Assembly (NCBI GenBank): GCA_000165345.1
Contig: CM000436.1
Span: forward strand, 320,001 to 384,000
Reading direction: 5' to 3'
Length of the DNA stretch: 64,000 nt
The notes below the pieces were generated by a model that was given only the letters and a program-made list of their open reading frames with translations, made no database searches and was not told where the DNA came from. Shown here piece after piece: positions 3,127 through 39,392 of the stretch; position 1 is the first letter of the stretch, and the number at the start of each line of letters is the position of its first letter. The position numbers and the translations under genes are program-made.

Positions 3127-4059
3127 TTATTTTTCTAAAGCTTTCTTAATTTCATCATATAATATTAGTACAAGTGCTCCACCTGTTCCTCTTAGTACAT
3201 TTGATAATGAACCTTTAAATAATGCTCCAACTCCTTCTTTTCTAATAATCTTTTTCAAACAATCATAAGCTCCAGTATATAAAACATCTTTCCCTTTCTT
3301 ACCAGCCATCATCATCATTCTTCTACGAATAGTATCAAATGGATAACATATTATACCAGCACTAGTTGTAACAGTTTGTGCAATTATCCATTTATAAAGC
3401 ATATTTTCTTGTTTCTGATTCTTAAAAAACATTTCTTTTGTTGTGTCATATAATCCAAAATAAGCTGCTCTATATACAAAAATTCCTTGTATTGATACAA
3501 AAAATCCTTGATATAAAGATCTAATACCACTTTGTTTTGAAATCTTCATAATGCAATCAAACATTCCCTTAAATTCTTTACTTCCATTCTTACCAATATC
3601 AGTAGCTAATCTTGTTCTTGCAAAATCTAATGGATAAACTATTCCAGAAGATGCAGCACCAGCCAAACCACCTGATAACATATTAACACCAAAAAATTTC
3701 CAGAAATCTGATTCTTTATTATAACGTGGCATCATATCTCTTATCATATCTTTAAATGCAAATCCAAATGCTTGTGTTGGAAAATATCTTATTACATTAG
3801 TTGTATTTCCTCTCCATAAACTTAATATTCCCTGTTCTTTTGATACTCTTCTTAAACAATCAAATATTCCAGCATATCTAGGAATTAAACCTTTAATAAT
3901 ATCTGGATTTGTATCTTGAGTTTGTAGAAGAAGTTTAACTCTTTCTATTGGTGCAACAGCTGTCTTACTAATTGTGGCAGAAATTCCACCTACAATAAAA
4001 TCTGTAAGGAAATTATTTTTTTTCTTTTTATTTTGTTTTTCTTCTTTTTTATTTTCCAT
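3127..4059 (-). CDS. AAC: Mitochondrial-carrier-family ADP/ATP translocase (AAC-like), with a Lys-rich N-terminal extension.
   Basis: Tripartite mitochondrial carrier repeats are present, including [10 protein letters not shown] and [10 protein letters not shown]. The AAC-specific signature RRRMMM occurs in [12 protein letters not shown]. The ORF track starts at a TTG at 4098; the first ATG (MENKKEE...) is at 4059 and gives about 310 aa, typical for AAC. Confidence 0.8.
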
Positions 4060-10305: not shown

Positions 10306-13300
10306 ATGAAGAGAAGTAAAAGCTACAGGGACAATGGTCGAAAAAAGTTTGAGAGGAAGACCACTGAAAGAAAGAAAGGTAGGTTTGAGTTAGGTGGCTC
10401 TTCCAATATTGATAAAAAGTTTGGAATCAATTTTCAAAAAATTGGAGTAAATCATAGGGAAATTGGTTATTTATACAATGTTCAAGTATCATCAGAATTA
10501 ATATCTGAATCTGGAACAGCATTTGATGGAATGGAAATTGGAACTCTAGAATCTTCATCAGAACTTATTGAATCTTATAAAGAACGTTCATGTCTTAATT
10601 TATATTTTATTAATAAACAAGGAATGACATTTAAAAGTCCATTCTTCTTTAGACCATATTTTTACTTGGAAGCACAAAAAGCTGTTGATATCCATTGGAT
10701 ATTAACCAATCTTGAACATAAATATAGAGATACTACTATAGAATTTACTAATATAATGAAAGAGGATTTAACTCTTGATAATCACTTAATTGGTGAAAAA
10801 AGAGAGGTTATTAAAGCTTCTTTTGATAATGTTAAGGAACTTGTTTCTATTAGAAATGAAATTCTTGATCATATCAAGAGAAATAAGCTTGAAAAAAAAA
10901 AGAATGAAAGTTTAAGTGCTTATTACGATCAGGATCAACAAAACAACTATGAAAATAAAACTCTTGATGTATTGGATTCTATTTCAGAAATTTACGAATA
11001 TGATGTTCAATATGAAGCACGAGTTATGATTGATAACTCCATTTCTATTGGAATGTGGTATGATTCTGTACGTTGGACTCATGAACTTTTGGAATTAAAA
11101 TGTTTAGATCATGATACTTCTGCTCCTGATTTAAGAAGTTTAGCTTGGGATATTGAAACTACTAAAGATCCTTTAAAGTTCCCTAATGTAGAGAAAGACC
11201 AAATTATGATGATTTCTTGTATGTTTGAAGGTCAAGGATACCTAATTACTAATAGAGAAATTGTTTCTGCTGATATATATGATTTTGAATACTCTCCTAA
11301 AAAGGAGTATGAATCATTCTTCAAATGTATTAATTATCCTGATGAAAAAGAACTTATTTGGGGATTTATTAAACTTATTCAGACTTTAAGACCTCATATC
11401 ATTGCTTCTTATAATGGAGATAATTTTGATTTTCCTTTTCTATATGAAAGAGCTAAAAAATATGATATCGATGTTTCCAAAGAATGGGGAATACGAATGG
11501 AAATTGATCATTCCTCTGGAGGAGGATTACAATCTTCTAATAAAACTATCTTTTCTGGAACTAATATTATTCATTTAGATTGTTTTAGATGGGTAGAAAG
11601 AGATTCATATCTTCCTTGTGGTTCTAGAGGTTTAAAAAGTGTTACTAAAGCAAAGTTAAGATATAATCCTGTTGAACTTGATCCTGAATTAATGGTTCCT
11701 TATGCAAAAACAAATCCTCAAGGTCTTGCAGAATATTCTGTTTCAGATGCAGTTGCTACTTATTTTCTTTATAAGACTTATGTTCACAGATTTATATTTG
11801 CTTTAGCTACTATAATTCCTTTATCTGGAGAAGATCTTCTTAGAAAAGGGTCTGGTACTCTTTGTGAACATTTATTAATGAAAGAAGCTTTTACTAAGAA
11901 TATTTTATTTCCAAACAAAAAAGTTCAAGAAACTATGGAATTTTATCAAAATAGACCCATCTTAAATAGTACTTATGTTGGAGGTACTGTAGAATCTTTA
12001 TGTAGTGGAGTATTTAGAGCTGATATTCCTGAAAAATTCTGTTTAAATACCGATACCCTTAAACATTTAATTAAAATATTAGATACTACTTTGAATTTTG
12101 GTATTAAAGATTCTGGTACTACAATTGATAATATTGAAAATTATGAACAAGTCAGAAATGAAATTCTTGAAAAATTGCAAAGTTTATTAGAATCTCCCAG
12201 AATTAAAATTGAGCCTTTAATATATCATCTTGATGTTGCTGCTATGTATCCTAATATTATTCTAACTAATAGATTACAACCAACAGCAGTAATAGAAGAG
12301 ACAACTTGTATGAAATGTCCATTCAATTCTGAGTCAAAACTTTGCCAAAGAAGGATGAATTGGAGATGGAAAGGAGATGTTTTTCCAATTTCCAAAGGAG
12401 AGATGGAGAGAATGATTAATCATATCCAAATTGAGACTTTTGAAAATGTTAAGAATGAAATAGGAGCAGTTAACAAGAAAAAGAAATTTGAAGATCATGA
12501 AAGTGATTCAGAAAATGATGATAAGATGGAATTTACTGGAGAAAATGTTAATATTAATAATAAAGAAAAGATTAAATGGTCATCTTTAACTCCTAGACAA
12601 CAATCCGAGATTTTAATACAAAGAATGAAAGCTTATTGTAATAAGATATATAGAAAACAAACTGAGAATATTGAAGAGACAAGATCTTCAATAGTTTGTC
12701 AAAGAGAAAATCCTTTTTATATAGATACAGTTAGACGTTTTAGAGATAGAAGATATGTTTATAAAGGTAAGAAAAAAGAAGCAGAAGAAAAGTTAAAGAG
12801 AGCTGAATTATTAGGAGATTTATTAGCAGTACAGGAAGCACAGAATGAAGAGCTTTTATATGAATCTTTACAATTAGCTCATAAATGTATTTTAAATTCT
12901 TTTTATGGCTATGTTATGAGAAAAGGGAGTAGATGGTTTTCTATGGAAATGGCTGCTATTGTTACATGGGTAGGTGGTAATGTGATTAGAGAAGCAAGAT
13001 CTTTAATGGAAGGTATCGGTAGACCTTTAGAATTAGATACCGATGGGATTTGGGCAATACTTCCAAAAGGATTTCCAGAGGAAATCACTTTTAGATTAAA
13101 GGATGGTGGTAAGAAGAAGATTCATTATATTTGTACTTTGTTAAATCAACAAGTTCACAAAAGTTGGACAAATGATCAATATTTGGAATATGATGCAGAT
13201 CTTGGGAAATATAATATTAAAGTAGAGAATTCAATATATTTTGAAGTGGATGGTCCATATAAATGTTTCTTTATTCCAGCTTCTGATAAACAGAATAAGC

Positions 13301-16300
13301 TTTTAAAGAAGAGATATGCAGTTTTTGATTTTGAAAATAGGCTTAAAGAACTTAAAGGGTTTGAATTAAAGAGAAGAGGAGAGCTTCAATTGATAAAAAT
13401 TCTTCAGGAGGAGTTATTTCCAGCATTTTTAAAAGGTAATTCAAAGAAAGAAGCATATGATCATGTAGCTGCAATATCAAAGAAATGGTTAAGTTTGATA
13501 GATACTAAAGGAAGAGGTATTTTAGATGATGAACAATTATTCTTTTTGATTTCAGAGTCAAAGAATATGTCAAAGAGTGTACAACAGATGGGGAATGCTA
13601 AGTCAATGTCAATTACAACAGCAAAGAGACTTTTTGAATTTCTTCAGAATCCTTCATATATTCAGGATAAGAATATTGTTTGTAAGTTTATTGTTTCAGA
13701 GTTCCCTAAAGGAGAAGATAAAAGTCAAAGAGCAGTTCCTCTTTCTATTTTTTCAACACCTTTAGAGACAAGAGTTTCATGGCTTTCTAAATGGCTGAGA
13801 ATAAGTAAATCTGGTGGAAGGAGAGAAAAGGATGAGTTGGTGGAGCACAGGAGGAAAGCAGATGTAGATATAACGAGTGGCAGTGGTGGTGGCAGTGGTA
13901 TTCTTAATAAAGAGAATGAGAATAACAAATGGAATGTTCGTAACATTCTGGACTGGGAGTACTATAAGAACAGGCTTACAAACACTATTTTAAAGATAGT
14001 TATAATTCCTGCAATTAACCAGGGGGTTCCAAATCCTCTTCCAGAATTAGAGGTACCGAGTTGGGTAAGATACCATTCAGAGATAGTTGGTACAAATCAA
14101 CAAAAGATTTCAGAGTACTTTAATGTTGTTAAGAAGGAGGAGAAAAAGAAGAGCAGTTTCTCTGAACTTCCTAATTATAATTCTATTATTCAAGGCCGAA
14201 GTCAAGATCATGGTCAAACTCAAGATCAGGGTCAAACTCAAGATCAGGGCCAAATTCAAGATCAGGGTGTAATTCAAGACCAGGGCCAAAATCGAAATCA
14301 AAACTTAACTTTAGGTCAAGGCCAAATTCAAGATCAGGGTCAAACTCAAGATCAGGGTCAAACTCAAGATCATGGCCAAATTCAAGATCATAGCCAAATT
14401 CAAGATCATGGCCAAACTCAAGATCAGGGTCAAACTCAAGATCAGGGTCAAATTCAAGATCAGGGTCAAATTCAAGATCATGGCCAAACTCAGGCTTGTA
14501 AAATTGTAGAAACCAGAAATAACAACAGTATTTCAAAATTGAATGGAAAACTGACAAAAAAAGAGAGGATTGAATTATTCAAGGAAAAAGGATTTAAATC
14601 CTGGTTAGAGTACCATAAGAAATTTTGGTTGGAGAATTTTCATGCATTTAATGAAAAACAGTCAGAACTTGAAAAGAAGCTAAAAAATATTGATATAGAA
14701 AAACTTGAATATTTTGGAAAAGGTAATACTGCAAAAGGTATCGAATTTTTATCTGAATATATTTTCTTAACGAAAGGAAGATTTCATATTTTAGATATAT
14801 ATCCTCTTAGTATCCAACAAAGGAATATTAAAAGAAATTATGATGAAGATCTACTGGGATTTTATAATGTTGTTATGTACTCTGAAGAAACAGGAGATTG
14901 TTTTACTGTTACATTTGAGTTCCTTAGACGTTTTTATATTGCTACAAATGTTCAAATTCAAATTATGGATAATGATGATGATGGTGAATTTATTACAAAA
15001 TCTATAGCTACAGGGAAAGAGTTACCTAGAGGGGTACCGTATAATCATTTAACAGAAGTAATAATTTCAGAGAGAAGATTTCAGAAATCAAAATCAACAT
15101 TGATTTGTGATAATAATACTGTTGGTATTTATGAGACAAATTTACCACTTGAATTTTCTATTTTAGAAAAATTTGGGAATATCATAGAAAGTAATACTCC
15201 TAATGTTGAGAAATTACTTCTTAAGAATGGAGCAATTACTGATAAATTTTGGAATTCTGCTGGTGGATTAAAAGAGAAGAATTTGAATTATGGAGATATA
15301 ATACATTGGTTATTTCTTTCAATATGTACTTTTGAAGAAAGAAAATGTTTCTCTTTAACAGATTTAAGTAAGAAAAGAATTTACTTCTTTCTTGGATTAG
15401 GACCAACTATTTCTAATAATATTCTTAAATCTGAGCTTCATAGACAAATTCAACAAGATCAAAGATTGGAAAAGATTACTGAAATTCATGTTAATTATTT
15501 TAAGACAACAAAAGATTGTTTAGAAGAATTGGATCGACTTTTGAAAGATTTAATCCAAGAATTTCCAAAAGAACCTATAGTTCTTTTAATACAATCAATG
15601 GTTAGATTAGAAGAACTTAAAACACATAATAGTGAATTAAATCTTTATAAAACTATATTAAGAGAATATATTTCTGAAATGGAACATAATAAGAAAGTTA
15701 TTGAAACTAAAATAGTAACATTATGGGAAGAAATAATAGATTTTGATTCAAGTAATTCAATATTTAGTAGATTTGATTGGCATAAAGATTCGATTAGATA
15801 TTCATTAAAAGCTTTAAAAGAAGCAATTAATAAACTTCAGCTATCATTAGAACTTTCTAAAGCTTTAAGACTTCCAGTATTATATTTACTTCAATTTAAA
15901 AAAAACTTAACAAACTTTTTATATGATATAATATATTCCAGAGAACTTCATTCTATGGGATTATTAAGCTGGGGATCTTTAAGATCCACTCCAGATCTTG
16001 GGAATCCTAAGTTAATCCAACTTTCAAAAAGTGATTGGGATCTTAGAAGACTTGGATATTTAATGCCAACAAAAGATCTTAATAACTCTAAAGGAGGAAG
16101 AGTAGGTGGAGGACATAGTAATTGTAATACTAATAGCTTAGATGAATTGGATGTATTGGAAGTAGTAAGACCAGGAATCTATAGAAACTATGGGGTTCAA
16201 TTGGATTTCAAGCAATGGCTAATAATTGAATCTGTAAGAAATTGTAGGTTACTCTCTGATAAGTACAACTTGGATGACTTTGAACAAGGAGAGAAACGTA

Positions 16301-18492
16301 TTCTTGGAGCTGATTGTAAGAAAAAGAATTCTGAAAAAGATGATAAGAATAAAGATGTTTTGATCTATAATCTAGGTAGTAGAAAGCATTTGAGTAATCC
16401 AAATAATAAACAAGGCTTATTGATTTCTCAGCCTTTATATAACCATTCATCATTATCCACAAGCTCAGCTTTTCTATGTTTAGAGAAAACTATCAATAGA
16501 ATGAGATCAGTAATTGAAAACCATGAAAAAGTGGAGTCTATCTTTAGAATATACAATGCTCAAAAAACTTGTGAGAATGAACAATTTGATCAAATGAATG
16601 ACAATATTCTTGGTAAAGAAGAAGAGAAAGGGGGGAGAGAAGATAGGAAAAGGAGGAGAGAAGAAGAGGAGAAAGGGGAGGAAGAGGAAGGGGAGGAAGA
16701 GGAGGGGGAGGAAGAGGAAGAAGAAGAAGAAACTTCAAGCTTACTTTTTGAGTTTATGGTAACTCTCCAGGAAAGATTCTACTCTTGGTTATCTTCTTCC
16801 AACTCTCTCTTGTATGACCCAGCTTTAATAGAGATGACAAAAGATTATGCTCATTGGTATTTTAAATCTCTTGAATCTGATATGAGAGAAATGGGAATCC
16901 AAGTAGTATATGGAAATATTAGAAAAATGATCTTAACATTTAATTTGGATGAATTGAAGAATAATAGTATTAGGAATAATAGTGATCTCCAAAATCAGTT
17001 TTCTAAACTTATGCAAATATTAAATAACAGAGAACTATATTCTGGTATTTCTTTAGATCCTACTGTAGAGTATAAGGCTATGATTCAAATTGACAGAACA
17101 AATTATATTAGAAGAACCTTGGGAGGAGGAGGATCTGGAAGTTTGGAAGATCCATATGAAATGAATCTAAGTTTATTGAACTACTTTCCAATAAATTCTA
17201 GAAAATACATTGTTGGCGAGATTTCTAACTTTTTGATGGAGCCTCTTAGAGAATTGAGAAACTACTTCAAGAAGAATTCCAATTTATCTCTTAAGGAATC
17301 TTTGCAAATATTGGGAGACATAGTTTTGGAACAATTTGGACCTTTTAGTGAGAATTTTCAAAACTTTTTGCAGGCTATTTCCAATCCAAATACATATATT
17401 GTAAGTAAATATGGAATTCAACAGTTTGATGATCCACTAAATGATATTGGATGGAATGATGATATAATAGGGGAAGGAGAGGAAGTGAAGGAAAAGAGGA
17501 AGATTATTGAAGAGGAGGAAGAGGAGGAGGAGGAAGAAGAAGAAGAAGAAGGAAAAAGAAGGAAGAAAAAGAATGCAAACTCAATATTAGAAGAAAACGA
17601 CGATACCCTATTACTAAAGAGGAATCTAGAAAATCTAGACATTAATAATAATAGAGATGATATTCCTTTTGCTATATACCCAAATTCAATAAAGAAAAAA
17701 GGAAATAGCCATTCATTAAGGATTGAAGCTTCAACAAAAAGAATGGAAGAAAAAGGAATAAGAAAAAGAAGAAATTTCAAAGACTTATTTGAATTCCCTC
17801 CATGTATTGGAAAAGCTTATAATGGAAATAAACCCTCATTAAGCTTGGAATTAATAAAATTATTTATTTATATTTGGGGATTGGATAAATCCTTTTCAAT
17901 AGATGAATCTAAACAGAAACAATATGAACAAATAATTTTTATGGTTTGCCAAGCTGTGGATATTTCAGAGTTTAATCCAATAGTTACAGAGAAATGGACT
18001 AGTCCTTTAATTCCTTATATAATCAAAGACTTTTCTTGTCCAAATTGTTTTGAAATAGAAGATTTTGACTTTACTGGGAATGCAATACAAGATGAAGATG
18101 ATCTTGGATTATCAAGTAATAATTACAATAATATAATTAGACCAAGGTTTACTTGGTATTGTAGTCATTGTAACTTTTCTATTGATAATGAAATTTTAGA
18201 AGAAAAGCTACTTCTTGAATTCTTTGAAAGATTGGAAGTTATTCAATCACAAGATATTCTCTGTTCAAGATGTAACTCCGTTCAAATAGGTTACATGCAA
18301 AAGCATTGCGATGAATGTATGGGAGAATTAACAACAAGACTTGGAAATCATAAAACTTTCCATAATTTCTTTACTCTATTCAACTCGGTTGCTCAATATT
18401 ATTCTGATCTAAATAATGAAGAAGATGAAAATCCACAATTCCAAGGCCTTATTGAATTTAAAAATATGTATGATAATATTTTATACATTTAA
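10306..18492 (+). CDS. POLE: DNA polymerase epsilon catalytic subunit A.
   Basis: The 2728-aa ORF has B-family exonuclease motifs LAWDIETTK and SYNGDNFDFPFLYERA; polymerase motifs HLDVAAMYPNIILTNRLQP, LNSFYGYVMRKGSRWFSMEMA and LELDTDGIW; and C-terminal CysX2Cys zinc modules CPNCFE...CSHCN and CSRCN...HCDEC. Colinear with Pol2/POLE throughout. Confidence 0.95.
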   Translation: MKRSKSYRDNGRKKFERKTTERKKGRFELGGSSNIDKKFGINFQKIGVNHREIGYLYNVQVSSELISESGTAFDGMEIGTLESSSELIESYKERSCLNLYFINKQGMTFKSPFFFRPYFYLEAQKAVDIHWILTNLEHKYRDTTIEFTNIMKEDLTLDNHLIGEKREVIKASFDNVKELVSIRNEILDHIKRNKLEKKKNESLSAYYDQDQQNNYENKTLDVLDSISEIYEYDVQYEARVMIDNSISIGMWYDSVRWTHELLELKCLDHDTSAPDLRSLAWDIETTKDPLKFPNVEKDQIMMISCMFEGQGYLITNREIVSADIYDFEYSPKKEYESFFKCINYPDEKELIWGFIKLIQTLRPHIIASYNGDNFDFPFLYERAKKYDIDVSKEWGIRMEIDHSSGGGLQSSNKTIFSGTNIIHLDCFRWVERDSYLPCGSRGLKSVTKAKLRYNPVELDPELMVPYAKTNPQGLAEYSVSDAVATYFLYKTYVHRFIFALATIIPLSGEDLLRKGSGTLCEHLLMKEAFTKNILFPNKKVQETMEFYQNRPILNSTYVGGTVESLCSGVFRADIPEKFCLNTDTLKHLIKILDTTLNFGIKDSGTTIDNIENYEQVRNEILEKLQSLLESPRIKIEPLIYHLDVAAMYPNIILTNRLQPTAVIEETTCMKCPFNSESKLCQRRMNWRWKGDVFPISKGEMERMINHIQIETFENVKNEIGAVNKKKKFEDHESDSENDDKMEFTGENVNINNKEKIKWSSLTPRQQSEILIQRMKAYCNKIYRKQTENIEETRSSIVCQRENPFYIDTVRRFRDRRYVYKGKKKEAEEKLKRAELLGDLLAVQEAQNEELLYESLQLAHKCILNSFYGYVMRKGSRWFSMEMAAIVTWVGGNVIREARSLMEGIGRPLELDTDGIWAILPKGFPEEITFRLKDGGKKKIHYICTLLNQQVHKSWTNDQYLEYDADLGKYNIKVENSIYFEVDGPYKCFFIPASDKQNKLLKKRYAVFDFENRLKELKGFELKRRGELQLIKILQEELFPAFLKGNSKKEAYDHVAAISKKWLSLIDTKGRGILDDEQLFFLISESKNMSKSVQQMGNAKSMSITTAKRLFEFLQNPSYIQDKNIVCKFIVSEFPKGEDKSQRAVPLSIFSTPLETRVSWLSKWLRISKSGGRREKDELVEHRRKADVDITSGSGGGSGILNKENENNKWNVRNILDWEYYKNRLTNTILKIVIIPAINQGVPNPLPELEVPSWVRYHSEIVGTNQQKISEYFNVVKKEEKKKSSFSELPNYNSIIQGRSQDHGQTQDQGQTQDQGQIQDQGVIQDQGQNRNQNLTLGQGQIQDQGQTQDQGQTQDHGQIQDHSQIQDHGQTQDQGQTQDQGQIQDQGQIQDHGQTQACKIVETRNNNSISKLNGKLTKKERIELFKEKGFKSWLEYHKKFWLENFHAFNEKQSELEKKLKNIDIEKLEYFGKGNTAKGIEFLSEYIFLTKGRFHILDIYPLSIQQRNIKRNYDEDLLGFYNVVMYSEETGDCFTVTFEFLRRFYIATNVQIQIMDNDDDGEFITKSIATGKELPRGVPYNHLTEVIISERRFQKSKSTLICDNNTVGIYETNLPLEFSILEKFGNIIESNTPNVEKLLLKNGAITDKFWNSAGGLKEKNLNYGDIIHWLFLSICTFEERKCFSLTDLSKKRIYFFLGLGPTISNNILKSELHRQIQQDQRLEKITEIHVNYFKTTKDCLEELDRLLKDLIQEFPKEPIVLLIQSMVRLEELKTHNSELNLYKTILREYISEMEHNKKVIETKIVTLWEEIIDFDSSNSIFSRFDWHKDSIRYSLKALKEAINKLQLSLELSKALRLPVLYLLQFKKNLTNFLYDIIYSRELHSMGLLSWGSLRSTPDLGNPKLIQLSKSDWDLRRLGYLMPTKDLNNSKGGRVGGGHSNCNTNSLDELDVLEVVRPGIYRNYGVQLDFKQWLIIESVRNCRLLSDKYNLDDFEQGEKRILGADCKKKNSEKDDKNKDVLIYNLGSRKHLSNPNNKQGLLISQPLYNHSSLSTSSAFLCLEKTINRMRSVIENHEKVESIFRIYNAQKTCENEQFDQMNDNILGKEEEKGGREDRKRRREEEEKGEEEEGEEEEGEEEEEEEETSSLLFEFMVTLQERFYSWLSSSNSLLYDPALIEMTKDYAHWYFKSLESDMREMGIQVVYGNIRKMILTFNLDELKNNSIRNNSDLQNQFSKLMQILNNRELYSGISLDPTVEYKAMIQIDRTNYIRRTLGGGGSGSLEDPYEMNLSLLNYFPINSRKYIVGEISNFLMEPLRELRNYFKKNSNLSLKESLQILGDIVLEQFGPFSENFQNFLQAISNPNTYIVSKYGIQQFDDPLNDIGWNDDIIGEGEEVKEKRKIIEEEEEEEEEEEEEEGKRRKKKNANSILEENDDTLLLKRNLENLDINNNRDDIPFAIYPNSIKKKGNSHSLRIEASTKRMEEKGIRKRRNFKDLFEFPPCIGKAYNGNKPSLSLELIKLFIYIWGLDKSFSIDESKQKQYEQIIFMVCQAVDISEFNPIVTEKWTSPLIPYIIKDFSCPNCFEIEDFDFTGNAIQDEDDLGLSSNNYNNIIRPRFTWYCSHCNFSIDNEILEEKLLLEFFERLEVIQSQDILCSRCNSVQIGYMQKHCDECMGELTTRLGNHKTFHNFFTLFNSVAQYYSDLNNEEDENPQFQGLIEFKNMYDNILYI
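14201..14495. repeat. Near-perfect 18-nt tandem repeat (CAAGATCAGGGTCAAACT)n, about 16 copies, encoding (GQTQDQ)n inside POLE.
   Basis: Direct head-to-tail copies with only a few substitutions sit in the variable linker after the conserved ILDWEYYKNRL block of Pol epsilon. The repeat generates the spurious antisense ORF at 14186-14557. Confidence 0.9.
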
Positions 18493-18650
18493 ATTATGAA
18501 TTTCATAGATAACTAGTTAAAAAAAAAGAAATAGAACGGAATTATTTGTTATATATAACTTACTATAATCTAAATCTATCCTTAAACTACCTATTCTGAC
18601 TTTGTTTTCAATTCGAAGATAAAAACAAATATATAAAAAAACAATTTAAT

Positions 18651-18714
18651 GCATGTGGGTTTGGCGGGCCATTGCGTGTATGAACCTGCATGTAGTGGCG
18701 GTAACATCTTTGCC
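18651..18714. promoter_or_regulatory. GCATG plus E2F-like TTTGGCGGGCC and GTGGCGG motifs in the convergent POLE / SEC24 3'-3' spacer.
   Basis: Read directly. Unusually, the motifs are downstream of both flanking genes. Confidence 0.35.
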
Positions 18715-18831
18715 TAACATTTTCTTTCTCCCATATGATAATAGTAACAATAATAATAATAATAATAATAATATTGATAATATAATTCTCTTTATCTACT
18801 TAGTGTTAGTCTTGTCTTGATTTTTGATAGC

Positions 18832-21800
18832 TTAGGAGTCAACAATTTTGCTTTGCACCAATTTGTGTACGTTGCATAAAAAGTCAACATAAGTAGTTTC
18901 AAATCCATATGCATCTTCAACCAACATAGCCTTGAACTTGGCTTCAATATTCTGAGAAACGGGAGAAACTATAACAACAGGCATATAACAATTCACAGAG
19001 AATCTATCGTTTCTAATTTGTTGTACCACATTTGAGATACGTTTAGAAATACCAATATTGGATTCCATTGTAGGTAAATAGTCCTCAGGTGGAAAAGAAA
19101 GTTTAGTAAAGTTTTCAAAATTGATGGAAGTGACTCCGAAAATTTCTGAAATAACTTTAGAATCAACTTGGGGTCCAAAATAAAGATAGATTTCTTTCCC
19201 ATTTTCTAGGACATAAATTCCATCAGAAAGTATTCTTTCTCCAGAACAAGCAATTGAATGATTGAGCCAATATCTAGATATAATAGGAGCATCAGATGAT
19301 TGGAAGGAGCTAGTATTAGAAGCATTCATTCCCATCATATTATTGGTATTATTTCCAGTATTGATAGATGAATCATTTTGAAAGGTAAGCTGGTAAGGAA
19401 GTCCAACAGATTCAAGCTTTTGCAACTCATTATTAGATTCGGATAAAATAAGAGAATGATGCAAAGGATAGAGTCTTGGGTAAAGAGTTGCTGTAGTGAA
19501 GCTTACTGAAGCATAAAGAAGCTCATATAAACCAACAAGCTGTTCTGATACAGTAAATTCCAAAACAGTATTTAGTGGCATTAACGAAGGATGCTTGAAT
19601 AATGATGAAACATAAATCAAAGTAAGTTTAAGAGAATCAGGAAGAATGAGCTGGCCAGTTGATGATGTATTTGCACAGTGTTCTCTATAAGAAAATAGCA
19701 TATCGATAATTGAATTCAGAGTTTCTTGCTTCCAAGCTGTGAGAATTGAGCTGGAGTTTTTGTTAGTAGAAAATGGAAGACCAGGAACTACTGATGTAGC
19801 TGCAGCTATAGCTCCTGTTGAACTTACAGAAGTAGATCCAGAAGAACCAGAAAAACCTCTTTGACCTTTTGAAACAATATGATGAGCAGCCATTCTAGCA
19901 TATATATTAATAATTGGTTCAATAGAAGCATATCTAAAAGCTGTGGTAATACTAGTAGTAACTGGAATAGATATGGTAAGCACTCTCAACAGTCTTTGTC
20001 GTTTATCTTTGCATGTATATAAGCAAGCAGCTTGTAGAAAGACATTTTTTCTTTGTTCCAAATTCTCCTCATGACGAAGTAGAAATGCTATTGCAGTATT
20101 ACTATCCAACTTGGGAATTTGAAAGGCTGAAAGGTCAGGAGTCGGACCACCAGCAGTCCATGGTGCATAAATCTTAGAAACTGCAATTCCTCTAGAGCAA
20201 CGCAGTTTAAATGTACAATCATAGGCCACATTTTGCACAAAGAATATACTATATAAAGTTTGATAAATATCTCTGTAAATCTTCTCAAAAGGAAATTCTG
20301 TAAATAAACGTAATTTACCACCAGTGTGTTGAGATAAATATGCAAATGTACTTGTAGGTACAGAGTTGGCGCCAAAAGCCGACCCCGCATTTGCATTTGG
20401 ACTAGTAAGACCTTGACCTTGCTCTCCTGTTGAATAATCTCCTTGAATAATTTTTGTTACAATAAATGTGTCAAGGGAGACATTGATTTCTCTGCAAGCT
20501 TGAACCATTGTATCTAGCTGTTGAATATTATGTACCAAATATCCAGAAACAAATCCTAATGATGGTTTCATTCCTTTAGAAGTTTTTCGAGGTGGGGACT
20601 TGGGAGCCACATTGGTTTCCTTTGTGTTAATGGCAGCAAATCCAATATTTGGTACTGAACTGACAAAGGAAAAGATAGAACCGGTCGAATTTCTTGCTTT
20701 AAAAATTTGAGTAGCAAGAGAAACTGCTGAAAAGTATGCATTATGTGGAGTTGAGTGAGGGGCTATGAGAGATGGAATACGATCAATGAGTTCATGGAGA
20801 AATTCCAATCCTTGTGCAACTGGGACACAAAGCTCAGATAAAGGACAAGGTAGGAATGGCTCCATTATGTCTGATACTACGCACATTTTGATTGGAGGTT
20901 TAGAGTTTTCATTCAAATTCTGATATGGGAATAAAAGGATTTCTCTTGAATAAAGTATAAGAGTAACATTAGATTCTGGTGAACTTTGGGCCAGTTGAGT
21001 AAAAATATGTTTAAGACAATAAAGGATAAGATTTGTAACATTTCCTTGTAATGCCATAGAAGAAGCTTCAATTACAAAGCAGTAGCAGGGTAGTTCTGGG
21101 GTAGTTGTAACACCAAGACTAGCTGGGGCAAAGTAGTCTACAACTCCATGATATATTTCAGGATAGTTATTTTGATCATCATTTGGAGATTGATAGCTTT
21201 GTGTCTTGATTTGTGATTGTAGTAATCTTAAGTAGTCCATGGGAATATCAAATGTATGCCCACAAAAGTTACAAAGACACTGACTACCATTTTGAGAAAC
21301 GCATGTAAATGGATTTGCATATGCTCTACATCTAAGACACCTGATTGGCTCTATAGTAGAGGAGGAGTTTACAATAGGTACCGGATTTTCAAAATCATTC
21401 AATAGAGGGAAAGGTTGAATAATTGCTGCACATGGAAGTTTCATAGATTGCAAAATTGAGTGTTGACTTGGAATTTGGTTTAAAGTTAACTTATAAAACT
21501 TTCCTGTTGCATTACCTCTATCTATCAACATCGAATGAGGTTCGGCCAAGGAATTTGGCGGAAGTAAATACTTGTCACTCTCATAGATACAACAATCCTT
21601 ATCAATTATGTTTCCAAACACTGGCCTTGGTATCTGGGATGGATCCACTCTAGATTGTACTGGTTTAGTTAAAGATGTTACAAGATTTGTTGAATTTTCG
21701 GCCAAATGTTGTTGTTGTTGTTGTTGTTGTTGATATTGCTGTTGTTGAGTCTGCAAATTTGTCTGATACTGACCCTGATGGAACTGTGTGGAAGAACCAG

Positions 21801-22284
21801 GATGTGGTGCCGCTATTGTACTTGTTTGCATGGGCGGGTTATTCATTTTTGCCTCATGTTTGGGCGGGAACTGGCTCCCATAGGCCGTATTGTATGAGGA
21901 GCCAGTAGTAGGAATGCTTGAATTGTTGTTAGGAGGGGGGTATGTAGTTTGTTGAACAGGTTGTGGTTGTGAATTTGTGGGATTGTTATATGTATTGTAG
22001 TTATAGCTCTGGTTTATATTTGATGTGAAATTAGTGTTACTTTGAATCTGGTGGTTATTGTTTAGTTGTTGGTTATTAGCATTTTGTAGGTAATTATTCG
22101 TCTGACCATTATTATACTTATTATTAATTACGGAGTAATTTTGGACATACTGAGGTATGTTTGGTTGTTGAGTTGCACTTTGAATTGAAGATGAATTATT
22201 TGTTTGATTAGGAATGTCGTTTACTGGTAAGCTATTTCCATTTTGTGAGTAATTTGATGTACTAAAATTTGGATAAACTCTCAT
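18832..22284 (-). CDS. SEC24: COPII coat protein Sec24.
   Basis: The Q/N/P-rich N-terminus is followed by a Sec23/24 zinc finger, CLRCRAYANPF...CNFCGH, then trunk, beta-barrel and gelsolin-like regions. At 1150 aa, size and domain order fit Sec24 rather than Sec23. Confidence 0.85.
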   Translation of the reverse strand: MRVYPNFSTSNYSQNGNSLPVNDIPNQTNNSSSIQSATQQPNIPQYVQNYSVINNKYNNGQTNNYLQNANNQQLNNNHQIQSNTNFTSNINQSYNYNTYNNPTNSQPQPVQQTTYPPPNNNSSIPTTGSSYNTAYGSQFPPKHEAKMNNPPMQTSTIAAPHPGSSTQFHQGQYQTNLQTQQQQYQQQQQQQQHLAENSTNLVTSLTKPVQSRVDPSQIPRPVFGNIIDKDCCIYESDKYLLPPNSLAEPHSMLIDRGNATGKFYKLTLNQIPSQHSILQSMKLPCAAIIQPFPLLNDFENPVPIVNSSSTIEPIRCLRCRAYANPFTCVSQNGSQCLCNFCGHTFDIPMDYLRLLQSQIKTQSYQSPNDDQNNYPEIYHGVVDYFAPASLGVTTTPELPCYCFVIEASSMALQGNVTNLILYCLKHIFTQLAQSSPESNVTLILYSREILLFPYQNLNENSKPPIKMCVVSDIMEPFLPCPLSELCVPVAQGLEFLHELIDRIPSLIAPHSTPHNAYFSAVSLATQIFKARNSTGSIFSFVSSVPNIGFAAINTKETNVAPKSPPRKTSKGMKPSLGFVSGYLVHNIQQLDTMVQACREINVSLDTFIVTKIIQGDYSTGEQGQGLTSPNANAGSAFGANSVPTSTFAYLSQHTGGKLRLFTEFPFEKIYRDIYQTLYSIFFVQNVAYDCTFKLRCSRGIAVSKIYAPWTAGGPTPDLSAFQIPKLDSNTAIAFLLRHEENLEQRKNVFLQAACLYTCKDKRQRLLRVLTISIPVTTSITTAFRYASIEPIINIYARMAAHHIVSKGQRGFSGSSGSTSVSSTGAIAAATSVVPGLPFSTNKNSSSILTAWKQETLNSIIDMLFSYREHCANTSSTGQLILPDSLKLTLIYVSSLFKHPSLMPLNTVLEFTVSEQLVGLYELLYASVSFTTATLYPRLYPLHHSLILSESNNELQKLESVGLPYQLTFQNDSSINTGNNTNNMMGMNASNTSSFQSSDAPIISRYWLNHSIACSGERILSDGIYVLENGKEIYLYFGPQVDSKVISEIFGVTSINFENFTKLSFPPEDYLPTMESNIGISKRISNVVQQIRNDRFSVNCYMPVVIVSPVSQNIEAKFKAMLVEDAYGFETTYVDFLCNVHKLVQSKIVDS

Positions 22285-22596
22285 TATTTATTTAACTTTC
22301 TGGGTATTAAGTGTTAATAACCCATACAGTAGAGGATTATCTTTGCTCCTAATAGTATTTAATTATTCTCCCCAAATAAAATAAAGAAAGAAATGTAGAG
22401 AAAATATTCTCCTTAATTAATTTAACCATACAGTTTATTAACTAGGTTGTTGCTATTATTGTTAAATTTTTTTTATTAATTAATTTTAATATTCTTTTTT
22501 GATTAATTTTCTATTTTCCCCTCTTTCTAATATGCATTTACTATTATTTCAATTATTATTATTCCCACATTAAAGTAATAAATAAATTGCCCAATA

Positions 22597-22607: not shown

Positions 22608-22980
22608 TTATTTAAATTATTTAGTGGGGAAAATTAATTTAAAAAAAAATGAAAAAAATGCTTTCGTTTATTCATTCTTAAATATTAAAAAAAAAATTAT
22701 AATATATATAAGTTTCTATAATGAAATTGATGGATAATTGTTCTTTGATTTTGTGATTAATAAAATCTGATAATAAATAGAAAGTATTATTGAACTTAAA
22801 TATTAAAATTTTATATTATTTTCTTTCAATGTTTTGCTGTTATAAATAGATTTGTTTCTAGTAAAATATATTTATATAAAGGAAAATTATTTACTATTAA
22901 AGAAAGATCTACCTGAATTTTTAAAATAATTTCTAATTAAAAAAAAAAATTTTTATTCACAATATTTATTGGTAGCAAAT

Positions 22981-23015
22981 ATGTGGGGAAATGTTTCTAG
23001 TGTCCTATACCGGTG
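22981..23015. promoter_or_regulatory. ATGTGGGGAAATG and ATACCGGTG motifs upstream of the 23210 gene.
   Basis: The same two motifs co-occur in the TLK/POLE promoter. Confidence 0.45.
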
Positions 23016-23209
23016 TTTGTTGGCATTGCATACGTGTATTTTTTTTTTCAATGTGGAAGGGGAACTTAGGTGTAAAGGCAATGCAAAAAAAAAATAAAAA
23101 TAATATTATAGAGTAAGCAGAGAATAGTTATAAATTTTAAGTATTTTTTTTTTTTCTAATAAATAATTAATAAGGTAATTAACAAAATAAAATTAGTAAT
23201 TAGATTAAA

Positions 23210-25363
23210 ATGCTAGATGGGAAAATCAAGAAGCCTGCTCATCAAAAATTACATGAAACAGTTGGAAAACATAACAGTTACATGAAAAATGTTGTATATG
23301 GTGACGAAAATATAACTGAATTAAATAAAATGGAATATCCAAGAAACACACTTTTGAGAAATAATGGATTACCAGAAAAACTTGAAAAGCATTTAAACAA
23401 TGAAAAAGAAAGAGAATTAGAATCATTATATGAAGAAAATCGACAATTATTAATGGAAATTTCAAAACTACGTAAAACAAATCAATTGTTAGTCAAAGAT
23501 GTAAATAAGAAAAATGAAATTATTGATAGTCTTGATTCAAGTCTTGTTGAAGTTGAAGAAAAACTGGAAAATGCAAAAAAGAAGAATTGGAATATGTATA
23601 ATGAAATTTTGAATAGAGAAAGAAAGAATCAACAACAAAATAATACCAGAGAACATAATACAGATTCAAATAATTCTGATGATGAAACTTATGAGCTTAA
23701 GGCCTCTAAAATTGGAACTTTTAATACAGTAAATATAATAAAATCTAATAATAAAAAAGATTTAACTAGCAATAGACCAAAGTCTACAAGTATCTCTACT
23801 TCAACAGAAAATACCAAATGGCTACAAGACATGATTTTAGAATCTTTAAGTGAAAAACATGTGGAAAAGAAAGCATATGATAATTTAAAATATGAAGTTG
23901 AGAAGCTTCAGAAAGAAATTTATTCAATGCAAACTGACTTATTGAAAAGTAATATACATGATGAAGTCATTCAAGAACCAATTGTTGATCATTCTAATGG
24001 AAAGTTATCAGTCTTCCATTCCACTAGCTCTTCAACCAATAATTCTTCAAGCATTATTGGAACATCTGTCAGCGGCTTTAATACCATCAATAATACTTTC
24101 CAATCTACTTCTCTCGCTCAAGAACTAAAGGAGGTCAACAATACTACAACTAATAGCTCCTTTGACTCTTCACAGAAATCTGAAGAAATTCAACAAGAAT
24201 CTGAAAAGGAAAATGAACAAGAAAATGTTGAATCTATTCCTCCAAGAAGTGTTCACATATTAATGGGTAAGACTTTCTCTAGAGACAATAACATTGACAA
24301 AAAAATCAACAAATACAAAAATGGTCCTAGATATAATATTCAGAAATCTGATAATGACAATTTTATTCATCCAACTTCTAATTATTACAGATCTGATATT
24401 CAAACATTCCAAACTCAAATTAATCAACAACCAAGTATAGCTACTAACGGAAATAACTATTATTACTACTCATACTCTAATTTGAATAATAAACATCAAA
24501 ATTACAACAACCTTGATCTAAAGAACTATTCTCATATCTATAATACTAATTACACTAATCCGTTTTTAAGTGTATCTACGAATGATAATTATAATAATAT
24601 GAATAGGCCTTTACAAGCATTCCAAAACAATAACTATTCTATTTATAACTCAATTAGAAGACCCATAAACCTTGCTGAATATAGAGCTAATTATAAAAAC
24701 CAACCGCATATGGACAACTTAGTAAATCACCATCCCCTAATGACTAACTCCATGTTAGATTCAGGCTTAAACCCTCAAAACTTAAAACAAGGATTTATAC
24801 AACATCAATACTCTAAAATTAATTTTCCAGAATCAAATTTAAACTCAATTCCAAGTTTAAATCCATTCTATACACAAACTATTAACTTAAATAATTATTC
24901 AAATTTACCATTTCCACCATTTCAAGTCAAAATTACACAAATATTCAGGAGAAATAGAAACAATTCTGTTCCTCCTCCAAGACCTAAAAATGAATTAAAT
25001 TCTGAAAAAGTTGTTAATGAAGAAAATCATCCAGTATCTAACAAAATTGATCTACCCGATTCTAATAATGATTCAGATAAAGATCTCCCACAGGGATATA
25101 TTCGTTTCAAAACTTCTATTTCTTCTCCATTGAGCCAGGATGATTTCTTTTCCCCAATCTCAGGAAATGTTAATAATATCTGTCCTTGCGATAAAGCCAT
25201 TGATTCATGCGCAGCCATATCAAAAAAGCTAATTCAAAATAACTATGAGAAGAAAAACAAGATGAGATCATCGTCAACATCTCTTCCACTCCCGATTCCT
25301 TTAATCGCAAAAAATAACCAATTTCAGGGAACATCTGGTCTACTCAAGTTTAGTAAATACTAG
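23210..25363 (+). CDS. Hypothetical protein with an N-terminal coiled coil and an Asn/Ser-rich low-complexity centre.
   Basis: This is a 717-aa ORF with an ATG start. Heptad-like charged stretches cover residues ~50-130. No recognisable catalytic motif. Promoter motifs lie 150-230 bp upstream. Confidence 0.6.
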   Translation: MLDGKIKKPAHQKLHETVGKHNSYMKNVVYGDENITELNKMEYPRNTLLRNNGLPEKLEKHLNNEKERELESLYEENRQLLMEISKLRKTNQLLVKDVNKKNEIIDSLDSSLVEVEEKLENAKKKNWNMYNEILNRERKNQQQNNTREHNTDSNNSDDETYELKASKIGTFNTVNIIKSNNKKDLTSNRPKSTSISTSTENTKWLQDMILESLSEKHVEKKAYDNLKYEVEKLQKEIYSMQTDLLKSNIHDEVIQEPIVDHSNGKLSVFHSTSSSTNNSSSIIGTSVSGFNTINNTFQSTSLAQELKEVNNTTTNSSFDSSQKSEEIQQESEKENEQENVESIPPRSVHILMGKTFSRDNNIDKKINKYKNGPRYNIQKSDNDNFIHPTSNYYRSDIQTFQTQINQQPSIATNGNNYYYYSYSNLNNKHQNYNNLDLKNYSHIYNTNYTNPFLSVSTNDNYNNMNRPLQAFQNNNYSIYNSIRRPINLAEYRANYKNQPHMDNLVNHHPLMTNSMLDSGLNPQNLKQGFIQHQYSKINFPESNLNSIPSLNPFYTQTINLNNYSNLPFPPFQVKITQIFRRNRNNSVPPPRPKNELNSEKVVNEENHPVSNKIDLPDSNNDSDKDLPQGYIRFKTSISSPLSQDDFFSPISGNVNNICPCDKAIDSCAAISKKLIQNNYEKKNKMRSSSTSLPLPIPLIAKNNQFQGTSGLLKFSKY

Positions 25364-25622
25364 ACATCTACTCTCATTGTATCCTAGCGTGACTCAACAT
25401 ACGACTCCCCTTCCCATATCCATCTTATAACTATCTATTTACTGCTAGTCAAATCTACAATCTAAAAGCAACATACAGTATAAAAACCTTAATTAATACA
25501 CAATTATTATTCGTTGTTTTTTAATATAAAATTCATACTCCTAAAAATTCTCCTGTAGAGCTCAACATGAACCCTTCTGTCCATTATACTACCTACAAAT
25601 TATTAACCGCCACATTTTCGAA

Positions 25623-25668
25623 AGCGCCAAATCGCATGCATTTTCATGTGGACAATTCAATACCGGTA
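25623..25668. promoter_or_regulatory. GCGCCAAA half-site, GCATGCAT and TACCGGTA in the convergent spacer between the 23210 gene and clathrin.
   Basis: Read directly. The cluster sits 3' of both neighbours. Confidence 0.35.
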
Positions 25669-25685
25669 TTTATTTAGCTGGTTTT

Positions 25686-28600
25686 CTAGTGAAAGATTAA
25701 TTTATTGTTTGACATTAGATGATAATTATTATTTATTGTATTGGAAGAGTTAGAATTTGAGTTATTATTACTGTTGTTATTGTTCACATGATGATGAGAT
25801 GAAATCAGACCAGGAGAAATTGAAGAATTGGGCCCCATGTCAACGCAACTTGAAATGTTTTGTGAGTTAGAAACACTTGGATGACCGCCAGAAGCCGTAG
25901 TTGCAATGTCAGTAATTTGAAGAGTTTCAAGCTTCTTTTCAAGGACATCAATTCTATTGGTCATATCTCTAAGACTTTGTATGAAAAATGGCATTGTAGC
26001 ATCCAGACAATTATGTTTCCAAGCCATTTCCATTACAGTATCTGGTCTTAAAAACTCATAGCATGTATATAAACAAGCTACAAAGTTCTCCTTCTTGTTA
26101 TTACTAAGGAGGAATTCCAAAAGTTCTTCAATAAGAGCAACATTGCCACTCTTGTAAACCACTAAGATTGCTTCATCTATTAGCATCTCTTTCTGACAAA
26201 TTGAAAGAGCTTGTTGATAATTTGAATTCTTATCTAAGATCTTCACTGCAAGTTTTCTTAAATCATTCATTGGATGCTTTTCTAATCTGGCTGAAAGTTT
26301 TGCCTGGTCATAGTTGTCGCAAGTTAAAATTAATTTCATCAGCTTTTCAACTTCCACCTTCTCTATGTATAAATTAATCAAAGCCTCATTCACAACTTGA
26401 ATGTTCTCATCACTAATAGATTCTAAGAATTCTTGAATTATTGAAATATCGTAATTAGATCCACTCTGTGTTCCACTTTCTTTCCCAACTGAAGGTCTTG
26501 GAGAAATCCCTGTAATTGGACCCACTGTATTAGAGCTTGTTGAAGAAAGTCCTTGACTAAAATACTGTTGAATAAATCTAGTAGTAATATTAGCAAGATC
26601 AAAATTGCTTCCAGATCTTCCTGTCCCTGATTGACTATGAGCTCCACTTGTTGATTTAGTGGGAGAATAGTCTGATATATCACTAGAGTTCGACTTTGGT
26701 ATCATTTCAGAACTTTTTTTAGGCTTTAAAGTTAACATTAATAAACTATTTAGCAATTCTGGATGCTCTTGTAGATAGAAAGTCATTGATTTATAGAGAA
26801 TATCCACATTTGTAACGTTTTGTAGTATACTTAGGAATTGATCATTCTTCCATGCCTCTTTTGGATGACTTATTACTGTTAAAACTGCTTGATCAAACTC
26901 TTGATATTGGAGGTAAAGGTATACCACCTCATTCCAAAGCTGTCTTTGCTCACAGATCCTAGTAAGCTTTGGGATGTTAATTCTTCCTGAGTAAGAAGAA
27001 CAATAATCCATAAGCTTTTCAGGAGTATACTTTGCATAAAGTATTCCAAGTTCTGTGAAAAGGCTACCATTAGCACGATCTGTGTTTTGAATAGCTCCTT
27101 CTAATAGAGTTAGAAGCTCAGCTGTGAGACCCTTCTTCTCATATTCAGATACCACATCCTCACAGTAATCTGGATACACTATTATGTTAAGTCCAGCTTG
27201 ATGTGCTAACTCAGATTCACCAATCTGCATACAAATCTGCAAAAGCTCCTTCCAAGTTTTAGGAGAGTTTGCCTTCTTAGCAGTTTCCAAAGCGTTATTG
27301 TACTCTCCAAGTTGAATATAGCAACTAGTAAGCCTTGAGTAATTTGGTATTGCCTGATAGAAAATGATTGAGTATCTATAATCTTGTTCATCCATAAGTC
27401 TATCTCCAATTTTTTGAAGTTGTACTGTGTTAATACCTTGTAAGAAGCTTTGGAGATCTTGCAAAAGCTCCAACTTAGACATACAGTAAGCTAATTCTGT
27501 ATCAACAATTGGGTCTTTGGATGTTCTAGAATCTTTCAATCTTCGAACCATTTGTAAATACCCCAATAGTTCTCGATAAGCTTTAACTGAGAGACAATGT
27601 TCAATAATAAGTCTATAATCTCTGGTGTTCTCAGATTTAATAAAGCAATCAACAGCGTCCTTTGTTCGAGAAATCTTTAGATATTGTTGACCAAGAACAT
27701 CCCAAACAGAGTTATCATTGCAATAGGATGCAAAATCCTGAACCTTAGATAGATCCATATTAGCCAATTTTTCAATACTAATCATAGAATCCAAGTTTTT
27801 CATAAACTCAGATCCTTGTCCATCAATTTCAATACCCTCATTCTTTAACAATTCAAGCTTTGAAATCATTAATAAGGTCTCAACAGCCTCATTATTAAAA
27901 GAGAACTTCTTATAGATCTGAAAAGCATGTGAATAAAGCCCATGATCTATTGCAACTTTGGCCACCTCCTTAGCATCATAATTATCTAATCTGAGTACGT
28001 AATCATCCAATCTTCGAACATCTATCTTAATAGAAGTTAATAAAAGAAGATTTTGAAGGTTCTTATTCTGAGAAAATTCAGTGTTATTAACATGGAAGAT
28101 AATCTTCTCCAAAACTTCTAATAATGAATTCGGTACCTCTGCATTAATAAATGCCCTAATTACACAGCTAATTTCTTCAGATTTATTATAGAACTCTGGT
28201 AATATTGAAGAAGTAACCTGATCAATAATAGCTTGTCTACACTGCTCATTAACAACAGGTTCAATAGAATTCGAAGAATTTCCCAAAACTTTATTCCAAA
28301 GATCAAGATCTTGACGTTCAACAAGGTACCTAGCTAATAAACGATATAAATCATTTTTGTAGGTAACTTGTATAATTTCATCATCGCATTGTCCCCAAGC
28401 CTTTCTATAAGCAATATATGCAAGATAAGGATCTCTATCTTCACAATAATCTCCAATAGTTTTTGCGTCATAATGAGGATTAGTCTTAAGGAAATTCTCG
28501 GAATCCTTATTCATATCAATATAAATCTTTGCCAAAGCATTATGTAAAGCTGGATCTTGGTACCCTTCTTGAACTCTTTCTTCAAGCCAAGATAACAATA

Positions 28601-34800: not shown

Positions 34801-34917
34801 AATTACGTCATTTTAAATTTGGCGCCTAAATAAATTCATGAACACTGTACCGGTATTCATGCACAATTTTTTTTTTTTCAGTTAATATATTTATCCACAT
34901 AAATCACACGTAATTAA
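34801..34917. promoter_or_regulatory. Bidirectional LMBR1-like / SMC5 promoter: AATTACGTCA, TTTGGCGCC, GTACCGGTAT, CATGCAC and CACACGTAATTAA.
   Basis: Positions are 34801-34810, 34818-34826, 34848-34857, 34858-34864 and 34904-34917. Confidence 0.55.
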
Positions 34918-39379: not shown

Positions 39380-39392
39380 TTCAAGTGTATTT

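Follow-up and report, generated by a model that had tools for sequence, protein, structure and literature searches.

Three spacers between the 3' ends of convergently transcribed genes on Cryptosporidium parvum chromosome 8 contain compact modules of promoter-type motifs. Judged from their sequence and its conservation, these modules are real, conserved cis-regulatory elements, and they lie in a place where no mRNA starts. The three modules fit the known class of C. parvum promoters for antisense and long noncoding RNAs (lncRNAs), and we give an approximately even chance to the explanation that they are stand-alone promoters between gene tails, launching antisense or noncoding transcription.

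RESULTS

Gene context of the convergent spacers

The window (the whole stretch of 64,000 nucleotides analyzed here) covers the region of C. parvum chromosome 8 around cgd8_1240 to cgd8_1330. Its three long convergent spacers were delimited by open reading frames (ORFs) and Pfam matches. Spacer 1 (339 bp, 18493-18831) extends from the stop codon of the DNA polymerase epsilon gene (POLE, 10306-18492, plus strand) to that of SEC24 (18832-22284, minus strand). Spacer 2 (322 bp, 25364-25685) lies between the stop codons of cgd8_1260 (23210-25363, plus strand) and the clathrin heavy chain gene (25686-31709, minus strand), and spacer 3 (222 bp, 44336-44557) lies between those of the calpain gene (41624-44335, plus strand) and a 293-aa gene (44558-45439, minus strand). 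Pfam matches confirmed POLE, SEC24, clathrin heavy chain, and calpain. An earlier note on this DNA had stated that both flanking genes terminate at each of these places, and the ORF and Pfam evidence bears this out: all three are true 3'-3' gaps. On CpBGF chromosome 8 (CP141125.1), spacer 2 maps to about 337,452-337,513, with spacer 1 some 6.96 kb ahead of it and spacer 3 some 18.8 kb beyond. The SEC24 ORF encodes 1150 aa, and its product agrees fully with the SEC24C-like protein annotated in C. parvum Iowa II; the product is also 1150 aa in one other C. parvum assembly, and a 1156-aa product is annotated in two further assemblies. The ORF at 23210-25363 is cgd8_1260 (cpbgf_8001260, CPATCC_0001310), and its protein is uncharacterized.

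The true convergent spacers of the window measure 13, 31, 70, 222, 322, and 339 bp, and motif clusters occur in only the three longest. The interval 39042-39392 (351 bp) had been considered as a motif-free convergent control spacer and was dropped because it is the last exon of the SMC gene. That gene (35097-39041, plus strand) runs past the end of its ORF through a short intron, with GTAAGT at 39024 and an acceptor that ends at 39076, into a last exon that ends at 39379 (TAG at 39377-39379) and encodes the Walker B region (..LFDEINQGLD..). The interval is made up of sequence of this intron and of the last SMC exon, which leaves just 13 bp as the actual convergent spacer between SMC and its neighbor.

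Convergent synteny as in spacer 1 was found in seven further Cryptosporidium loci. The SEC24/POLE and clathrin/cgd8_1260 pairs are both convergent in C. meleagridis, chipmunk genotype I, C. canis, C. ryanae, C. bovis, and C. muris. A Logan-assembled Cryptosporidium species (hereafter the Logan species) has the SEC24/POLE pair on a contig that stops before clathrin.

Motif content of the three spacers

The upstream motif families described for C. parvum include the E2F-like motifs DTTGSCGCCH and TTTGGCGGGAAV, the AP2_1-like motif BGCATGCAH, which is bound in vitro by the ApiAP2 protein cgd2_3490, and the G-box-like motif DTGTGGGG, which is bound by the ApiAP2 protein cgd8_810 (Oberstaller 2013, PMC3734150). 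The E2F/DP consensus (DTTGSCGCCH, TTTGGCGGGAAV, or TTSSCGCCWAA) was matched in spacers 1 and 2, and a search for consensus matches to an E2F site in spacer 3 found none. The AP2_1 palindrome BGCATGCAH is present as the exact match CGCATGCAT in spacer 2 and as the double site TGCATGCATGCA in spacer 3.

The motifs quoted from spacer 1 in the earlier note (TGCATG, TTTGGCGGGCC, and GTGGCGG) are all located where it had placed them. On the plus strand at 18650-18659, a TGCATG AP2_1 half-site (18650-18655) overlaps ATGTGGG, a G-box-like site of the DTGTGGGG family. The C. parvum sequence of this site, ATGTGGGT, matches 7/8 of DTGTGGGG; chipmunk genotype I, C. canis, and the Logan species have an exact TGTGGGG here. 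The E2F-like site TTTGGCGGGCC (18660-18670, plus strand) corresponds to Oberstaller motif 4 (TTTGGCGGGAAV); it contains the E2F consensus match TTTGGCGGG at 18660-18668, and its TGGCGGG is invariant in five species. The motif scan also placed a second TGCATG (18687-18692) and a second GGCGG site, GTGGCGG (18695-18701), on the plus strand at 18687-18701. The second TGCATG is a complete GCATGCA in chipmunk genotype I and C. canis, whereas C. parvum has half-sites only, and the second GGCGG site is inverted to CCCGCC in C. canis. These elements lie in a 60-bp island of up to 60% GC at about 18643-18712, with the rest of spacer 1 at 3 to 30% GC. An AT-rich block (..TAACTTACTATAATCTAAATCTA) at 18551-18578, 59 to 86 nt past the POLE stop codon, occurs as a single copy in the window, and 24 of its 28 columns are invariant in five species. 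The longest stretch of spacer 1 that is identical between C. parvum and chipmunk genotype I is 36 nt. An (AAT)n microsatellite at about 18739-18768 interrupts the sole sizeable ORF of spacer 1 and is absent from C. meleagridis, chipmunk genotype I, and C. canis.

In spacer 2, the motifs noted previously are likewise in place (GCGCCAAA at 25624-25631, GCATGCAT at 25634-25641, and TACCGGTA at 25661-25668). The motif scan located the G-box/GGCGG-like ATGTGGCGG on the minus strand at 25607-25615, pointing at cgd8_1260. By motif scan and alignment, the E2F-like TTTGGCGC (25624-25631, minus strand) adjoins the AP2_1 site CGCATGCAT within 25624-25640, followed on the plus strand by CATGTGGACAA and then ATACCGGTAT (25645-25668). 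The CATGTGGACAA site (25645-25655) is the exact reverse complement of TTGTCCACATK, motif 5 of the lncRNA-upstream motifs of Li et al., and the adjacent ATACCGGTAT resembles examples of their motif 4. G-box variants are present as ATGTGGAC and ATGTGGCG. The ACCGGT motif has seven copies in the window, four of them within divergent promoters. Two AT-rich blocks, TTAATTAATACAC and ATATAAAATTCATACT (25489-25539, 126 to 176 nt after the cgd8_1260 stop codon), are conserved in the alignment of four species and not repeated in the window. Spacers 1 and 2 have in common the unit AATGCATG-N3/4-TTTGGCG, in opposite orientation, which gave a local alignment score of 21 against a shuffle 95th percentile of 17. 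Because this unit is all that the two spacers share, and because the AT-rich blocks are unique in the window, an origin from a repeat or mobile element was rejected. Position 25618, which falls between motif sites, is T in the window and G in four other C. parvum assemblies, and it is the sole spacer 2 difference among these assemblies.

The motif reported in spacer 3, TGCATGCATGCA, was recovered at 44386-44397. It is part of the minus-strand composite TGCATGCATGC-AAAA-ATGACGTG (44375-44397), which combines a double AP2_1 site with a TGACGT-type site and was defined by motif scan and interspecies comparison. Only two copies of ATGACGTG are present in the window, and the second is in a genuine promoter at 58889. 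C. ubiquitum and C. canis have the composite (TGCATGCAT..ATGACGTG) in plus-strand orientation (comparison loci L013, ~5832-5859, and L014, ~3436-3459). The C. parvum copy is on the minus strand and, once reverse complemented, nearly identical to theirs over about 18 nt, so that a regulatory element has undergone a small inversion between species. The composite was not found in chipmunk genotype I.

Shared vocabulary with genuine promoters

The description of these clusters as promoter-like is supported by published motif families, by cross-species footprints, and by the vocabulary and spacing of genuine promoters in the window. The POLE/kinase promoter contains the conserved footprints TGTGGGG - ACCGGTAC - TTTGGCGCCAAAC, and the cgd8_1260 promoter contains the conserved footprints ATGTGGGGAAAT..CCTATACCGGTGT. 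The promoters at 58834-58896 and 34805-34900 bear ACGTCAT, TTTGGCGCC, TACCGGTAT, CATGCA, and CCACAT. The genuine promoters also have conserved AT-rich blocks beside their GC motifs.

Several other regions of the window were also recorded. A block of about 100 nt at 22975-23075, located 135 to 235 nt upstream of cgd8_1260, is near-invariant in five species and is a good example of a composite G-box/ACCGGT promoter (ATGTGGGGAAAT..CCTATACCGGTGT..ATTGCATACGTGT..ATGTGGAAGGGGA). Directly upstream of the SEC24 start, about 170 to 200 nt (22285-22480) are almost invariant in five Cryptosporidium species and far more conserved than the remainder of the 925-bp divergent spacer. On the minus strand, this region contains CTGTATGG(T/G)TTA twice, each copy followed by an AT-rich TTAA-type stretch, and an Rfam scan of it at an E value of ≤1 gave no match. 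It could be a conserved 5' untranslated region (UTR) or upstream ORF, an intron, or an intermediate-size noncoding RNA (ncRNA). Within the 2808-aa ORF at 45790-54216 (minus strand), a promoter-like cluster at 51723-51833 (CCACAT, TGCATGCA, TGCATG, and TTTGGCGC) is a candidate internal or antisense promoter or a candidate sign of a split gene model; C. ubiquitum has two genes annotated where C. parvum has this ORF. The SEC24 coding sequence contains ATGTGG/TGCATG/GGCGGG at 21802-21863, near its 5' end, and the palindromic TTGGCGCCAA at 20366-20375.

Enrichment of the motif clusters

The motif TTGGCGS occurs 19 times in the window compared to about 2 occurrences expected from base composition, and 13 of the 19 copies are within the intergenic 13% of the window. 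The E2F-like element is both enriched in regulatory DNA and evolutionarily conserved. With literature-defined motifs only, E2F and GCATG-type motifs co-occurred within 60 bp in 7 bins, compared to 0.045 expected and a maximum of 1 in 200 Markov simulations, and spacers 1 and 2 account for two of these bins. A wider promoter vocabulary gave 11 clusters compared to 0.1 expected: six in true 5' regions, three in the convergent spacers named above, and two inside coding sequence. The extended vocabulary (ATGTGG, ACCGGT, and TGACGT) was partly picked after the three spacers had been viewed, so that the count of 11 clusters is somewhat circular, whereas the literature-defined test is not. The scan and the cluster statistics confirmed the earlier claim that clusters similar to that of spacer 1 occur in two more convergent spacers, at 25623-25668 and 44375-44397.

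Conservation across Cryptosporidium

The five-species alignment of spacer 1 contains three islands, namely, the AT-rich block at 18551-18578, ATGTGGG(G)TTTGGCGGG, and CTGCATG(CA). In these islands, 60 to 86% of the columns are invariant, compared to 11% in the other 285 positions. In spacer 2, CATGCA....CATGTGGA and the two AT-rich blocks are conserved in four species, with CATGTGGA itself invariant in all four. The clusters of spacers 1 and 2 are kept in C. meleagridis, chipmunk genotype I, and C. canis, and the Logan species keeps that of spacer 1 only; the spacer 3 element is kept in C. ubiquitum and C. canis. In the distant species C. ryanae, C. bovis, and C. muris, none of the motifs was found in spacers 1 and 2, and the POLE/SEC24 spacer of C. 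ryanae and C. bovis is only 138 to 190 bp. This pattern identifies the clusters as phylogenetic footprints. The conservation of elements despite their inversion argues for recognition of double-stranded DNA by proteins and not for an RNA-level signal.

Transcript and chromatin evidence

A total of 396 lncRNAs have been catalogued in C. parvum, of which 92% are antisense, with a bias to gene 3' ends (Li et al. 2021, PMC7840661). In that study, the 100 bp ahead of the antisense lncRNAs contained the E2F/DP1 motif TTSSCGCCWAA, the ApiAP2 motif ANTTGCATGYA, motif 5 (TTGTCCACATK), and a motif 4 that contains ATACC[A/G]G (PMC7840661). The table of Li et al. 2021, in gene-ID order, goes directly from CPATCC_0000903 to CPATCC_0001453. 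This gap spans the whole window, indicating that none of the 396 lncRNAs is in the window. Four diagnostic 12- to 14-mers of the putative antisense regions were absent from the part of the Li et al. lncRNA FASTA that was covered, and queries of published lncRNA lists by cgd IDs, CPATCC IDs, motif instances, and k-mers returned none in the window. A full-text literature search with the cpbgf_80012xx and cpbgf_80013xx IDs found no mention, and a public-assembly look-up for cgd8_1260 transcript ends returned genomic contigs only. The data set of Li et al. contains no intracellular stages before 24 h (PMC7840661), and the expression maxima of E2F/DP are at 2 h and 12 h, so it is plausible that the catalogue missed such transcripts. 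The CpBGF annotation contains 766 lncRNAs.

ATAC-seq of C. parvum identified 984 peaks, 888 of which are upstream-regulatory, and many inter-gene regions that contain E2F motifs are inaccessible in sporozoites (Xiao et al. 2025 preprint). The presence of a motif is therefore no guarantee of an active promoter.

DISCUSSION

Proposed stand-alone promoters between gene tails

Under the proposed explanation, each long convergent spacer holds a compact 25- to 65-bp module of predicted double-stranded-DNA binding sites for the main promoter factors. The predicted sites are those of E2F/DP (TTTGGCGG/C), the GCATGCA ApiAP2 protein, and the G-box ApiAP2 protein (TGTGGGG/ATGTGG), together with ACCGGT and TGACGT-type sites. 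In spacers 1 and 2, an invariant AT-rich block flanks the module about 75 to 100 bp away on the side of the plus-strand gene. Binding of these factors would open a nucleosome-free promoter between the two 3' ends. From there, RNA polymerase II would start noncoding transcripts that run outward, into the 3' UTR and coding sequence of either or both of the convergent genes. The products would be natural antisense RNAs like those in the existing C. parvum catalogue. That the factors bind, that the chromatin is open, and that transcription starts at the modules and in which direction is what we infer.

The orientation of the motifs hints at the direction of transcription. ATGTGG-type sites in the genuine 5' regions are usually on the coding strand of the nearer gene, a bias seen over few orientations. 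For spacer 1, this bias would suggest that transcription starts on the plus strand, antisense to SEC24. In spacer 2, ATGTGG sites on both strands flank the E2F/GCATGCA core, which hints at bidirectional (divergent) initiation. The AT-rich blocks of these two spacers are among the most conserved noncoding sequences there. A core-promoter or TATA-like role is plausible for them, and they may instead have roles in 3'-end processing or as splice signals; for the block at 18551-18578 in spacer 1, a TATA-like or core-promoter function and a 3'-end function are both possible. A splice reading, based on a minus-strand GTAAGT in spacer 1 and a branch point with YAG on the plus strand of spacer 2, is not supported by our reading of the alignments, in which these signals are inconsistently conserved: the Logan species is without the GTAAGT of spacer 1, and the putative downstream exon is not conserved.

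Alternative explanations

Because the motifs are short, and ATGTGG and TGCATG are among those that also occur in coding sequence, the clusters might be a chance or compositional coincidence in AT-rich DNA. However, they exceed the Markov expectation about 100-fold, and the motif islands have been kept across species while their surroundings diverged; such a coincidence is extremely improbable, and the simulation statistics effectively refute a chance origin. In yeast, general regulatory factors are known to terminate transcription by acting as roadblocks, and the same factors that bind promoters could act here on non-promoter 3' elements, either a downstream enhancer or silencer for the flanking genes or a roadblock or nucleosome-free insulator against the collision of convergent polymerases. 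The position of the clusters of spacers 1 and 2, near the middle of the spacer between both 3' ends, would suit such a function, as would the lack of a catalogued lncRNA in the window (Li et al. table), and conservation with tolerance of inversion would suit any protein-binding role at the DNA level. In addition, the G-box and E2F module of spacer 1 is of the type found in POLE's own promoter, which is compatible with coregulation from the 3' side. However, a 3' element of this kind is without precedent for Cryptosporidium in the literature examined, a simple roadblock would not need the complete promoter grammar with its neighboring conserved AT-rich blocks, and C. ryanae and C. bovis have the same convergent pairs without any such cluster. 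We consider a non-promoter 3' element rather unlikely, although the most probable of the alternatives.

Elements that act at the RNA level, in the 3' UTRs of POLE, cgd8_1260, or calpain, would make the likeness to promoters incidental, with the conserved sequences serving in mRNA stability, localization, or 3'-end processing. The location of the spacer 3 element, 40 to 62 nt past the calpain stop codon and upstream of the first AATAAA at 44452, indicates that it is probably within the calpain 3' UTR, and the AT-rich blocks of spacers 1 and 2 are likewise at short distances after the plus-strand stop codons. In contrast, the inversion of the spacer 3 composite between species and of the E2F half-site in C. 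canis means that the mRNA would carry the complement, and the motifs are exactly the DNA motifs that are enriched in the 5' regions of the window. On the plus strand of spacer 1, RNAalifold found no supported structure, with 0 compensatory pairs and a positive covariation term. These observations make an RNA-level role improbable. The clusters are very unlikely to be promoters or parts of an unannotated small gene, whether for a protein or for a structured RNA (snoRNA, snRNA, or intermediate-size ncRNA). The strikingly invariant AT-rich blocks could be so interpreted, and C. parvum has 43 novel intergenic intermediate-size ncRNAs, with 15 C. parvum ncRNAs conserved in close relatives only. However, the ORFs are crossed by indels of lengths not divisible by three and by an (AAT)n tract that is species specific. 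Inspection by eye showed no conserved box C/D pattern, the CTGA of spacer 1 being TTGA in C. meleagridis. Scans for tRNAs and Rfam families, of the whole window and of the spacers alone at an E value of ≤1, gave no match. For spacer 1, RNAalifold (plus strand, this spacer only) gave a consensus of -7.3 kcal/mol with 0 compensatory pairs and no covariation, and a structured RNA gene was rejected there, the weak hairpin arising from the GCATG half-palindromes. The suggestion in the earlier note that the clusters serve unannotated small genes did not hold up, as the ORFs reach at most 55 aa and lie where the sequence is unconserved and rich in indels, and none of the species examined has a gene called in the spacers.

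Comparison with related systems

Nucleosome-depleted regions at yeast gene 3' ends either fire antisense ncRNAs or hold roadblocks made by general regulatory factors. As in the C. parvum spacers, factor sites are found there between convergent genes of a compact genome, and the modules and the yeast regions are alike candidate antisense sources or read-through barriers. The factors differ, with Reb1, Abf1, and Rap1 in yeast and, as predicted from the motifs, E2F/DP and ApiAP2 proteins here.

The stand-alone promoter explanation has its closest parallel within C. parvum. The antisense lncRNA promoters of Li et al. 2021 are similar to the spacer modules in their location at gene 3' ends and in their E2F, ApiAP2, motif 5, and motif 4 elements, although no lncRNA of that catalogue maps to the window. 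Among the 363 antisense RNAs of the catalogue, 309 have a neighboring mRNA in head-to-head arrangement (PMC7840661) and can therefore share its bidirectional promoter. Unlike these, the three modules are located where no mRNA starts and would be stand-alone ncRNA promoters. The upstream elements of C. parvum mRNAs (PMC3734150; ATAC-seq E2F peaks, Xiao et al. 2025) have the same consensus motifs in the same combinations; in contrast to them, the spacer modules are downstream of both neighbors and upstream of no annotated gene.

Implications

A broader model can be proposed for the intestinal Cryptosporidium clade, which we regard as speculative and unlikely to be correct in full. Convergent pairs would normally be within about 10 to 70 bp of each other and would be spaced apart only where selection keeps a stand-alone, orientation-tolerant promoter module. 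The POLE/SEC24 module, a "DNA-replication-type" G-box and E2F module of the same type as POLE's own promoter, would drive antisense RNA, coupled to the cell cycle, into one of the two genes or both, or would act as an insulator between them. It would constitute an E2F-timed sense/antisense switch, missed by the existing catalogues because the early (2- to 12-h) stages were unsampled.

Little is understood about how Cryptosporidium regulates its genes, of which about 10% or more have antisense RNAs of unknown function. The phenomenon of antisense and long noncoding RNAs has already been published for C. parvum, so the gain from these loci is incremental. The modules have persisted throughout the divergence of the intestinal clade, and some were not lost even when inverted. 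Because both neighbors end there, the modules belong to no mRNA, and the three loci would be clean test cases for whether E2F and ApiAP2 sites alone are enough to start transcription. They would also be suited to the question of whether antisense transcription from the 3' end controls essential genes, such as those of DNA polymerase epsilon, SEC24, and clathrin.
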